From Escherichia coli (lineage in GTDB: Bacteria; Pseudomonadota; Gammaproteobacteria; Enterobacterales; Enterobacteriaceae): a stretch of 64,000 nucleotides of DNA. Positions 60,101 through 63,100 of this stretch are shown in pieces (position 1 is the stretch's first letter; each line of letters opens with the position of its first letter). The position numbers were made by a program. The stretch is from the NCBI RefSeq assembly GCF_013315695.1, contig NZ_CP054353.1; one strand, given 5' to 3'.

Positions 60101-63100
60101 TTGCTGTTACCAAAGAAAACAGAACCGAAGGTCATTTTTGCAGTAGTACCCGGAGCCGGGTTAGCTTTGCTGCAGTCAATAGTAATGCTGAATGGTTTAG
60201 CTTTAGCGCCTACAGTGGTATCCAGTACACCATCAGTAATTTCAGCAACAGTAGCGGTTTGCAGCAGGATCAGACCGTCTTTGTTACCGCCATCAACACG
60301 AGCTTCACAAGTGTTATCAACGACCAGACCGCTAATATTTAATTGACCGCCGTCCATATCGTTAGCAGCAAATGCAGTACCAGCAGCCATTGCCAACATA
60401 ATACCGGACAGCGCAAAACCTAATTTTTTAGACATAAAAATCCTTGAGTAATATTCCATAAAGCAGATAACAGCATTGCATGATGATGAGATTTTGATGC
60501 AATGCCATGTAACTGAACGTTACTTTGTTAATGATGTTTGTTTGTTTTTTACTAAGTATTACATTCATTCATCATTGGGACAGCTATTTTGCATAATGCC
60601 ATGACATATGCAATTTAATTTTACTAAATATGAAAATTAGTAAAATTAACTTTAAAAAATTAAGGGAGTGGTGTATGGAATTAGAATTTCGGGAAGGTAT
60701 ATTATATTTTCTGTGTTTTTATTTATCTTAAATATATTATTATTTGCAATAGCTTAAGGTTATTTTCGGAATATATTTATATTCACACGAATAATAATTA
60801 CCACTTATCTAATTCATTGAAGCCTTTTGCCTGTAGAGCTTCAACTAATGATAAGCCATCAGGAAATACCAATTCCGGCGCAATTTCAAACAGTGGCCAC
60901 AGCATAAAGCCACGATTTTTCATATCGTAGTGCGGAACGGTCAGACGTTCGGTATTTATTACTTCATTACCATACAGCATGATGTCGAGATCCAGCGTGC
61001 GCGGTCCCCAGCGTTCCGCTTTACGGACGCGACCTTGCTGCAATTCGATACGCTGTGTGTGATTGAGTAGCTCTTCAGGGGCAAGAGTGGTTTCCAGCGC
61101 GACGGCTGCATTTAAGTAATCGGGTTGATCTTGCGGCCCCAGCGGTGGGGTGCGGTAAAACGAAGAAACAGCAAGAATGCGGCTTTCTGGAATATCGCCT
61201 AATGCTTTCAGGGCAGCATTGACCTGCTCCAGCGGAGAGGCCAGATTGCTGCCTATGGCAATATACGCCATTGTCATGCGGTACCCTCACGACGCGGTGC
61301 GCGTTTGCGTGGACGACGAGTACGACGACGCGGTGACGGTTCTTCATCCAGTTCGTTAAGCATCCCTTTTTGGTCTGGCGGCGCGGAAACCTGGAACTCA
61401 CCCCACCATTTCACCAGACGTTGCAGTTCAGCGTTACGCTCAACTTCGGCTCGTAAGGCCAACAGGTCGTATGCCGCACGGAACTTAGGATGCTCCAGTA
61501 GTTTCCATGCGCGTTTTCCCTGACGACGGGACATACGCAACTGCAACTGCCAGATATCGCGAGTTAGCGTAGTCAGACGTTTCGGGATCGCCAGTGAACG
61601 GCAGGCTTCGTCCAGCACGTCGTTCATCGCCAGTGCGAAAGCGTCGTGATAGGTCAGGCCGCTTTCCTGGGCGATCTTCTGTGCCGTCTCCAGCAATGGG
61701 TACCAGAACATGGCGGCAAACAGGAACGCCGGGTTCACGCGCATATCGTTATGGATACGCGTATCGGTATTCTTCAGCACCTGTTCAATGATCCGCTCCA
61801 TCGGGCTGTCGCCATTTTCCGTGAAGTAGCGGGTAATGGTCGGGAACAGCGGCTGGAACAGATGATATTCACACAGCAGCTTATAAGTTTCGTAACCGTA
61901 GCCCGCTTGCAACAGTTTCAGCGATTCTTCAAACAGACGTGCCGGTGGGATATCGTTCAGTAAGGTTGCCAGGCGTGGGATCGGCTCGGCGGTTTCCGGG
62001 CTGATGCGCATGCCCAATTTGGCGGCAAAACGAACCGCGCGAAGCATCCGTACCGGATCTTCACGGTAGCGCGTTTCCGGGTTACCAATCAGACGGATAA
62101 CGCCGTCTTTCAGATCCTTCATGCCGCCAACGTAATCACGGACGGTAAAATCTGCCACGCTGTAATACAGGCTGTTGATAGTGAAATCGCGGCGCTGGGC
62201 GTCTTCTTCGATGGAGCCGAAAATGTTGTCGCGCAGCAACATACCGTTTTGCCCGCGTTGGGAGGTCGTGCGGTCGCTGACGTTACCTTCGTGATGTCCA
62301 CGGAAGGTCGCAACTTCGATAATCTCCGGGCCAAACATCACATGAGCCAGACGGAAACGGCGACCCACCAGGCGGCAGTTACGGAACAGTTTGCGCACCT
62401 GCTCTGGCGTGGCGTTGGTGGTCACGTCAAAATCTTTCGGCTTTTTGCCAAGTAACAGGTCGCGCACGCCGCCGCCAACCAGCCAGGCTTCGTATCCCGC
62501 TTTATTGAGCCTGTACATTACCTTCAGGGCATTTTCACTGATATCTTTGCGGGAAATAGCATGCTGCTCACGCGGGATCACCGTCACCTGTGGACGGGCG
62601 ACTGCCTGTTCAGCCTCGCTTTCCTCGCGGCTTAGCACCTTGCGGCAAAAATTAGCGACTCGGGTAAAAATAGTACACCTCGGTAGTGTCAAACATCATT
62701 CAGGACAAAAAAATAGCGGCTAATCATAGCTCAGCATGACGCATTTGAGAATGTTGAATTTACAATTGCCGACTCAGGCACTGCGGTCAGCGTCCAGTTT
62801 TTGACGGCTGACTGAAGGATTTGCTCGACGCTGAAATCCTGCCAGTGTGTTTCTACCTGCTGACCCAGAAAATGAAGTGCCGCGATTAACACCGGGCGCG
62901 GATCGCCTTTCGGCAACGCAGGCGCATGATTCTGCTTGGAAAGTTTAGCGCCTTGTGGATTAAGCGCCAGCGGTAAATGGATGTAATCTGGCACTTTCCA
63001 GCCAAAAAGCTGGTACAGCGAGATTTGCCGCACAGTCGGTTCGATCAAATCTGCCCCGCGGACAATTTCGCTCACGCCCTGGAAGTGATCATCCACCACC

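Follow-up and report, generated by a model that had tools for sequence, protein, structure and literature searches.

The closest described system is the yadN promoter, Pyad, of Escherichia coli CFT073 (Ellison et al., PLoS Pathog 2026, PMC13245861), which is the same locus as the one considered here. In CFT073, the fusion pMK1lux-Pyad gave about 203 units in the wild type versus about 33 for the empty vector, and about 19,470 units in an hns deletion mutant, approximately 96-fold above the wild type. Supplying hns in trans brought the signal back to about 316 units, showing that repression was restored. Serum still raises the yadN promoter-lux signal in the mutant without hns, and therefore another factor acts on the 205-bp fragment carried by the fusion. 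In ExPEC, expression of the yad operon is described to rise in serum and in infected tissue, and overproduction of the H-NS antagonist SlyA raises yadN 2.4-fold.

In K-12, the homologous spacer between folK and yadN, where the yad operon is cryptic, is listed as a "promoter island" (Panyukov and Ozoline 2013, PMC3661553), and every ChIP study taken into account shows it bound by H-NS. It has 369 nt, compared to 362 nt here, and both spacers are AT-rich, H-NS bound and transcriptionally quiet. More distant resemblances are found to fimS of the type 1 fimbriae, an AT-rich, H-NS-bound control region 5' of a chaperone-usher major subunit gene, and to the pap regulatory region, which is long, AT-rich, located 5' of a fimbrial operon and repressed by H-NS.

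Location, composition and distribution of the spacer

The window is the whole 64,000-nt (64-kb) stretch of E. coli DNA that was analysed. The features that define the locus are the following.

60436-60797, minus strand: folK-yadN intergenic spacer, the AT-rich, very probable regulatory region of the yad operon
59845-60435, minus strand: yadN, the major fimbrial subunit gene, very probably controlled by the spacer
60798-61277, minus strand: folK, the same-strand gene upstream of yadN
60460-60664, minus strand: 205-bp segment identical to the insert of the CFT073 yadN promoter-lux fusion, located by mapping its primers

Because yadN starts at 60435 and folK ends at 60798, positions 60436-60797 are the complete 362-nt spacer, exactly as delimited in the preliminary description. 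That description had called the spacer strongly AT-rich, which is borne out by a GC content of 25.7%, compared to 50.4% across the window. A GC content this low is reached by only 0.05% of the 362-nt segments in the 64 kb, and the lowest of them (25.1%) starts at 60421. Among the 28 intergenic spacers that have 50 nt or more, ranked with the near-identical MSB1_4I annotation, the folK-yadN spacer is the GC minimum (median about 0.40), and its folK-proximal half (60616-60795) falls to 18-22% GC. The multiple A/T tracts mentioned earlier are present, with 11 runs of at least 4 nt, but they are not in excess over same-composition shuffles (8.6 +/- 2.5). Since the run count matches the shuffles, the tracts are a product of composition and no separate signal.

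The spacer, a B2-type allele carried by about 560 of the 5426 complete genomes, differs from that of CFT073 at 2 of 362 nt, both at most 35 nt from the folK stop, and the pMK1lux-Pyad primers (PMC13245861 supplement) map to 60460-60664 with zero mismatches, the enclosed reporter fragment being free of differences. Positions 21293 to 64000 of the window are 99.99% identical to MSB1_4I, and the YadN protein (WP_001314434.1) is identical in MSB1_4I, CFT073 and APEC O18. With the K-12 spacer the identity is only about 55%, near the value that two aligned AT-rich sequences give, and the divergence runs on into the last approximately 58 nt of folK, which fall in a divergent yad haplotype block; the K-12 megablast alignment ends at 60856. 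The anchor blocks common to both spacers are GAATATAAATA next to folK, a palindrome, a GTAA-N6-GTAA repeat and the Shine-Dalgarno/ATG region. Cross-species footprinting with two DNA-pattern scans of genome contigs returned no match and then five matches, only one of which was from Escherichia, with 159 nt of upstream sequence.

On the minus strand the spacer is followed by yadN, a chaperone gene, the usher gene htrE, yadM/L/K and yadC. In the window strain the operon is decaying: yadC is interrupted by IS1 and yadM carries a frameshift, whereas CFT073 has neither lesion. As the operon is damaged, the spacer may no longer matter to this particular cell.

H-NS silencing and promoter activity

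We consider it very probable that the spacer is an H-NS-silenced control region with the promoter of the chaperone-usher operon yadN-(chaperone)-htrE-yadMLKC. The published reporter, carrying identical DNA, establishes that 60460-60664 holds at least one promoter, weak in the wild type and about 100-fold stronger without H-NS. The published per-gene ChIP-seq table for CFT073, whose values are averages over the flanking genes and not a profile of the spacer, classes yadN (28.25) and folK (18.3) as H-NS bound and pcnB (0.59) as not bound. The H-NS-bound block covers yadC and yadN, extends into folK and stops short of pcnB. The K-12 per-gene values are 20.65 for yadN and 10.89 for folK. Part of the repression that H-NS exerts on the plasmid-borne fusion could be indirect.

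The suggestion of an H-NS-bound, silenced yad promoter, made from the sequence alone, is therefore supported by the lux fusion on the identical 205 bp together with the CFT073 ChIP-seq of the flanking genes, and for these genes the ChIP comparison proposed as a check gave the expected result. The preliminary description had named missing H-NS occupancy and missing promoter activity as evidence against itself; published data on near-identical DNA show both to be present. Its word "cryptic" is too strong for ExPEC, where induction by serum and in tissue makes the silencing conditional. It was also correct that this is not a novel element, the spacer being the known yad control region. As H-NS silencing was already published for K-12 and ExPEC, the finding is nothing new in kind.

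How H-NS is directed to the spacer appears to be a matter of composition. The 10-bp high-affinity H-NS motif has no match in the spacer better than three mismatches, which is chance level. We scanned the spacer with 14 consensus sequences (Fur, ArcA, CpxR, OmpR, Lrp, IHF, CRP, FNR, SlyA, the H-NS 10-mer, Fis, RcsAB, PhoP and NagC), none of which beats the shuffles. A literature search gave no usable mapping of the yadN transcription start and nothing usable about Lrp, IHF, LeuO, Fis, CpxR, OmpR or ArcA at yadN, and the TosR, AutA/AutR and EHEC Sakai papers are without yad promoter data. In the mechanism we propose, the extreme AT content (18-33% GC, with many TpA steps) would recruit H-NS, which, with StpA, would coat the spacer and keep the yad operon off. 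What H-NS occludes would then be not one strong promoter but a group of sigma-70-like sites, weak and overlapping, which is the promoter island pattern. A factor other than H-NS would relieve the silencing in serum or tissue, and the spacer may also terminate pcnB-folK transcription in a Rho- or H-NS-dependent manner.

Promoter-like signals and leader

The sequence signals connected with transcription and translation start of yadN are listed here.

60618-60644, minus strand: candidate sigma-70-like site, TTTACT (60644-60639), 15-nt spacer, TAAAAT (60623-60618), PWM score 9.9
60701-60706, minus strand: perfect TATAAT hexamer, 266 nt 5' of the ATG, with a poor -35 match, PWM score 10.6
60436-60459, minus strand: yadN translation initiation region, with Shine-Dalgarno AAGGA (60445-60441) and conserved ATGGAAT (60459-60453)
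60473-60505, minus strand: hairpin GCATTGCAT / ATGCAATGC with a 15-nt loop in the likely 5' leader, found in the B2-type allele only

Promoter prediction had also been proposed as a check. A strict sigma-70 consensus scan of the spacer returned no site, compared to 4.1 +/- 1.8 in shuffles, so the promoter signals it holds are all weak. A scan with our own PWM found, at a score cut-off of 7, 83 sites per kb in the spacer, compared to 9.7 per kb window-wide, which is 8 to 10 times denser on both strands. By this count the spacer fits the promoter island definition, in which promoter-like signals are unusually dense on the two strands along at least about 300 bp. Because this softer matrix gives many weak sites, no single promoter can be named.

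The TTTACT-15-TAAAAT candidate is the top PWM match within the active 205-bp fragment. It sits within the palindrome described below, with a mirror copy on the plus strand, and its K-12 equivalent reads TTTACT-15-TAAATT. The TATAAT hexamer falls outside the active fragment, and a -10-like hexamer (TATAAT, CATAAT or AATAAT) is kept in six of seven alleles.

AAGGA and ATGGAAT are invariant alignment columns across the alleles. In the window, the upstream ATG in ATGGAAT shares the reading frame of yadN, giving an open reading frame (ORF) of 204 aa, whereas in K-12 and SCU-484 the corresponding ATG starts an ORF of three to four codons followed by a stop. The leader hairpin is not kept in K-12-type alleles, and the leader RNA folds no better than shuffles (z = -1.0), with a consensus of -2.3 kcal/mol and no conserved helix.

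Conserved elements within the spacer

Comparison of seven alleles points to three further elements.

60612-60652, no strand assigned: conserved dyad-symmetric element with arms 60615-60627 and 60637-60649, TTAATTTTACTAA / TTAGTAAAATTAA
about 60548-60563, minus strand: direct repeat GTAAT-ACTTA-GTAAA (GTAA-N6-GTAA), overlapping the extended -10-like TGTAATACT (60563-60555)
60769-60784, minus strand: best-conserved block, adjoining folK, GAATATAAATATATTC, of which GAATATAAATA is invariant in all seven alleles

The dyad has perfect 13-bp arms around a 9-nt centre, with its midpoint 197 nt 5' of the yadN ATG, and arms of this length were reached in 0 of 300 shuffles. Arms of 11-17 bp are found at the same position in six of the seven alleles (shuffle mean about 7), none of 300 shuffles reaching the observed symmetry in five alleles and 2 of 300 for K-12. 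Across the alleles, 85% of the cells are paired, compared to 20-57% on sliding, and three pairs are changed on both sides. The DNA hairpin z-scores range from -3.2 to -6.7, and the dyad sequence occurs once in the window.

The GTAA-N6-GTAA repeat is conserved in six of seven alleles with variable intervening bases, and occurs once compared to 0.03 expected from shuffles, for a pattern picked after viewing the data. Sites of CpxR- or OmpR-type response regulators are direct repeats of GTAAA-like pentamers spaced by 10 bp. In the form GTAAT-N5-GTAAA the repeat differs from the CpxR consensus by one mismatch, again a pattern picked post hoc, and CpxR is the top of the 14 consensus scans with a shuffle P of 0.12. 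We found no literature link of yadN to CpxR or OmpR. The block adjoining folK lies beyond the tested reporter fragment.

The dyad at 60612-60652, the GTAA-N6-GTAA repeat and the evidence for an ending of pcnB-folK transcription in the spacer were not reported in the preliminary description.

Alternative explanations

Several other readings of the spacer have to be weighed against that of an H-NS-silenced promoter region. The one with most weight, to which we give an even chance, takes the spacer to be mainly the termination zone of pcnB-folK, Rho-dependent and aided by an H-NS filament, with a candidate Rho-loading site in the following segment.

60640-60717, minus strand: C-rich, G-poor sense-strand patch, candidate Rho-loading (rut-like) segment, with 18 C and 3 G in 78 nt

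folK and yadN share a strand, and the RNAP ChIP signal in CFT073, given as gene averages, is 6.54 for pcnB, 5.75 for folK and 0.56 for yadN, an approximately 10-fold fall across the spacer. The spacer holds no intrinsic terminator, both scan matches being in the folK coding sequence, and termination would for this reason be Rho- or H-NS-dependent. The C-rich patch is located 80-160 nt 3' of the folK stop. However, in K-12-type alleles it is conserved only in part, and neither 3'-end mapping nor bicyclomycin data for the site turned up. A termination role could coexist with the promoter role. A more doubtful, though serious, alternative reads the dyad as the operator of a specific dimeric repressor or H-NS antagonist, which would set yad expression against a background of H-NS silencing. 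The symmetry is kept 193-197 nt from the ATG in haplotypes that are about 55% identical, with three compensated positions; the element lies in the active 205-bp fragment and overlaps its top promoter-like match; and the persistence of serum induction without hns indicates that another factor acts there. Against this, deletion of hns by itself derepresses Pyad about 96-fold, and the dyad fits none of the known E. coli transcription factor consensus sequences better than chance. At 35-41 bp the element is long for one dimer site, and its copy in allele 13KWH46 is degraded. The compensations are all A-T to T-A swaps within AT-only DNA, and the covariation score is only modestly above shuffles, 23 of 500 of which equal it.

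The preferred reading, an H-NS-silenced promoter region, also has to be set against switches of the kind known from other fimbriae and against a hidden gene. A small protein or small RNA gene is very unlikely. There are three ORFs of 33-46 codons, and the 46-codon one on the minus strand (60568-60428) is open in four B2-type alleles, but no ORF of the three stays intact in K-12-type alleles, and Shine-Dalgarno sequences are absent from all of them. Already between close alleles, the plus-strand ORFs are disrupted by loss of the start codon or by additional stops. No conserved RNA fold was found, and a search of Rfam 15 at a permissive threshold yielded no curated RNA family, the matches being eukaryotic or otherwise irrelevant noise (top score 19.7 bits, with a threshold of 35; E-values of at least 0.38). 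No feature is annotated within the spacer in MG1655 or in the 40 listed matches of the 560 same-allele genomes. A fimS-like invertible promoter, making Yad phase variable, is disfavoured and extremely improbable, even though several short AT-rich inverted repeats are present. The preliminary description had seen no clear inverted repeats of an invertible switch, which holds for flanking repeats, as these are at chance, but it overlooked the internal palindrome at 60612-60652. The longest far-separated perfect repeat has 10 nt and is matched by 20% of shuffles, so that, unlike fimS, the spacer has no significant flanking repeats, and it has no recombinase gene of the fimB/fimE type beside it, its neighbours being only folK, pcnB and the yad genes. 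In all 560 same-allele genomes the alignment covers 80% or more of the spacer at a single location, and the 40 listed matches are all single pieces; no inverted form is therefore seen, the spacer standing in one orientation throughout. The 2026 study (PMC13245861) also states that Yad is not phase variable. The chance of an epigenetic switch of the pap type is negligible; in such a switch, Lrp and a PapI-like protein govern the Dam methylation of two GATC sites that lie in Lrp binding sites 5' of the promoter. A Lrp-like 15-mer with two mismatches overlaps one arm of the palindrome, but this match is at chance (P = 0.36), no papI- or papB-like genes are nearby, and GATC is absent from 60436-60797. 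Since the defining sites are missing, this switch is refuted at the sequence level.

Implications for Yad expression

Yad fimbriae aid tissue colonisation by extraintestinal E. coli in bloodstream infection, and the spacer, very probably their control region, decides their expression. The promoter and its response to H-NS can now be placed within 60460-60664, a stretch that also holds two conserved motifs, one symmetric and one repeated. These motifs offer targets in the search for the serum-responsive regulator left open by the 2026 study (PMC13245861). We propose, tentatively and as something that is on balance unlikely, that the dyad, perhaps with the GTAA-N6-GTAA repeat, might be the site for a factor that counters H-NS at Pyad in serum and infected tissue, a suggestion drawn from sequence conservation. 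If so, the dyad would be the specific switch of a fimbria required for bloodstream colonisation.

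Pyad in the B2/ExPEC lineage

The genes folK (end at 60798) and yadN (start at 60435) both lie on the minus strand, and these limits confirm that 60436-60797, the region singled out in the preliminary description, is the full 362-nt spacer between them. The window matches the RefSeq gene order of MSB1_4I (dksA-gluQRS-pcnB-folK, spacer, yadN, chaperone, htrE, yadM, yadL, yadK, yadC), to which it is 99.99% identical over 21293-64000. About 686 bp of MSB1_4I are missing from the window at ~21293, near the tssD 5' region and ISKpn26, with 99.99 to 100% identity elsewhere; the window thus stems from a strain closely related to MSB1_4I, which need not be MSB1_4I itself.

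The described AT-richness is borne out by a GC content of 25.7%, against 50.4% for the window, with 18 to 22% in the folK-proximal half. Only 0.05% of all 362-nt segments have a GC content this low, the global minimum falls on the spacer, and of the 28 annotated intergenic spacers measuring 50 nt or more in 50 kb (median, ~40%), it is the lowest. The A/T tracts are also present, but the 11 runs of at least four A or T compare with 8.6 +/- 2.5 in same-composition shuffles, so they reflect composition and carry no additional signal. At 26.9% GC, the 108-nt gap separating yadN from the chaperone gene (59737-59844) is nearly as AT-rich. The window has a second AT-rich trough at ~22400-24800 (minimum, ~30% GC), between pdhR and aroP, where an array of repeated small genes, "bacteriocin immunity" and hypothetical, follows a long tssD (Hcp) gene; the CFT073 counterparts (hcp, c0133 to c0137) show strong H-NS binding, with signals of 19 to 52.

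Of 5426 complete E. coli genomes, about 560 share this spacer allele, among them CFT073, Nissle 1917, NRG 857C, and APEC O18, whereas about 3100 genomes carry the K-12-type allele, which is homologous but only ~55% identical; the spacer is not the K-12 sequence. It is the B2/ExPEC allele of Pyad, the yadN promoter region, already characterized in CFT073 and EC958, in line with the earlier judgment that it is not a novel element. Its two differences from CFT073 both lie no more than 35 nt from the folK stop, making the published CFT073 experiments directly transferable.

The divergent block extends beyond the spacer into the final ~58 nt of folK (60798-60855), which belong to the yad haplotype although folK is a housekeeping gene; the FolK C-terminus reads ...LSLVEALQAKGFNELDKW in the window and ...EMLRQILHTRAFDKLNKW in K-12. 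Both the recombination boundary and the H-NS-bound block, the latter at gene resolution, extend into folK. In E. coli 20Ec-P-124 (L008), ISApl1 lies within the spacer at the equivalent of ~60727, on the folK side of the assayed promoter fragment, sparing the proximal ~290 nt.

H-NS silencing and promoter activity

Ellison et al. 2026 (PMC13245861) assayed a lux fusion of CFT073 "about 200 bases upstream of yadN", whose primers map to 60664 and 60460 with zero mismatches, placing the fragment at 60460-60664. The values were ~33 for the empty vector, ~203 in the wild type, ~19,470 in the hns deletion, and ~316 with hns in trans. The fragment therefore holds at least one promoter, repressed about 100-fold by H-NS.

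In the CFT073 per-gene ChIP-seq table of Hustmyer et al. 2022 (PMC9765446), yadN (H-NS 28.25, RNAP 0.56) is classed as "H-NS bound, RNAP weak", with values of 18.3 and 5.75 for folK and 0.59 and 6.54 for pcnB. At gene resolution, the H-NS-bound block covers yadC and yadN, extends into folK, and ends before pcnB. The K-12 ChIP-seq pattern for yadN, folK, and pcnB is the same, and the K-12 spacer is a listed "promoter island", H-NS bound in all ChIP studies considered. Overproduction of the H-NS antagonist SlyA raises yadN 2.4-fold.

Reporter and ChIP-seq data thus agree on the proposed H-NS-silenced yad promoter and contradict the opposite case of neither occupancy nor promoter activity, so the interpretation stands; the finding itself is already known. 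The term "cryptic" is too strong in ExPEC, where the operon is induced by serum and in infected tissue.

The AT-rich spacer would recruit H-NS, which may then occlude several weak, clustered promoter-like sites. No site in the spacer emerged from the strict sigma-70 consensus scan; a PWM scan placed promoter-like sites there at 8 to 10 times the window density, on both strands.

Candidate promoter and start sites in the spacer
60706-60701, minus strand: perfect TATAAT, candidate -10, outside the assayed 60460-60664 fragment
60644-60618, minus strand: TTTACT-15-TAAAAT, candidate, top PWM match within the active fragment
60563-60555, minus strand: TGTAATACT, extended -10-like candidate
60453-60459, minus strand: conserved upstream ATG (ATGGAAT), in frame with yadN, without its own Shine-Dalgarno sequence

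The upstream ATG may give yadN in the window an 8-codon N-terminal extension, for an open reading frame of 204 aa; in K-12 and SCU-484, its equivalent opens a 3- to 4-codon frame stopping before the Shine-Dalgarno sequence.

Four other functions for the spacer are excluded. An invertible switch, already doubted for lack of telling inverted repeats, is rejected: flanking repeats are at chance level, no recombinase gene lies nearby, and 560 genomes show a single orientation; Yad is also stated not to be phase variable (PMC13245861). The spacer contains no GATC for a Pap-type methylation switch, no Rfam match or conserved fold indicating a small RNA, and no conserved open reading frame for a small protein.

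Transcription from pcnB-folK would end within the spacer. The three genes pcnB, folK, and yadN are co-oriented, RNAP drops 10-fold across the spacer (CFT073 gene values, PMC9765446), the terminator scan detected no intrinsic terminator in it, and a sense-strand patch at 60717-60640 is C-rich and G-poor (18 C, 3 G). Together, these observations point to termination that depends on Rho, H-NS, or both.

Operon decay and conserved motifs

Downstream of the promoter, the yad operon of the window strain is in decay, as seen from yadC::IS1 and a yadM frameshift. IS1 (53091-53857) splits the tip-adhesin gene yadC into fragments at ~52449-53078 and 53844-54491; CFT073 is without the insertion, and its alignment stops at 53090 and restarts at 53858 with a ~10-bp overlap fitting a target duplication. 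Compared with CFT073, yadM (55785-56344) lacks 7 nt (ATCAGAA) at ~55895/55896, a deletion that shifts its frame near the C-terminal end, and PGAP also labels MSB1_4I yadM "frameshifted".

An alignment of seven alleles, four B2-type (82 to 97% identity) and three K-12-type, leaves few anchor blocks common to both types.

Anchor blocks
60769-60784: GAATATAAATA, just past the folK stop
60612-60652: palindrome, the clearest block, inside the active fragment
60549-60563: TGTAA-N5-GTAA (GTAA-N6-GTAA direct repeat)
yadN translation start region: ATGGAAT / AAGGA / ATG

The palindrome, occurring once in the window, has perfect arms of 13 bp there, 16 in SCU-484 and 2009C-3133 (B2-type), 17 in PSJ-23, and 11 in K-12 (shuffled arms: mean 7 bp, maximum at most 12), with its center always 193 to 197 nt upstream of the ATG. 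Across alleles, 85% of its positions are complementary, against 20 to 57% with slid pairing, three positions are changed on both sides, and the single-strand hairpin has z-scores of -3.2 to -6.7. As all compensations are A-T to T-A swaps, a DNA operator and an RNA hairpin are indistinguishable. Comparison with 14 transcription factor and nucleoid protein consensus sequences assigned no known regulator. The GTAA-N6-GTAA repeat, seen once against 0.03 expected for a pattern picked post hoc, is kept in six of the seven alleles and resembles OmpR/CpxR-family sites, a similarity for which we found no literature support. Both elements, palindrome and direct repeat, offer modest new leads to a factor counteracting H-NS.
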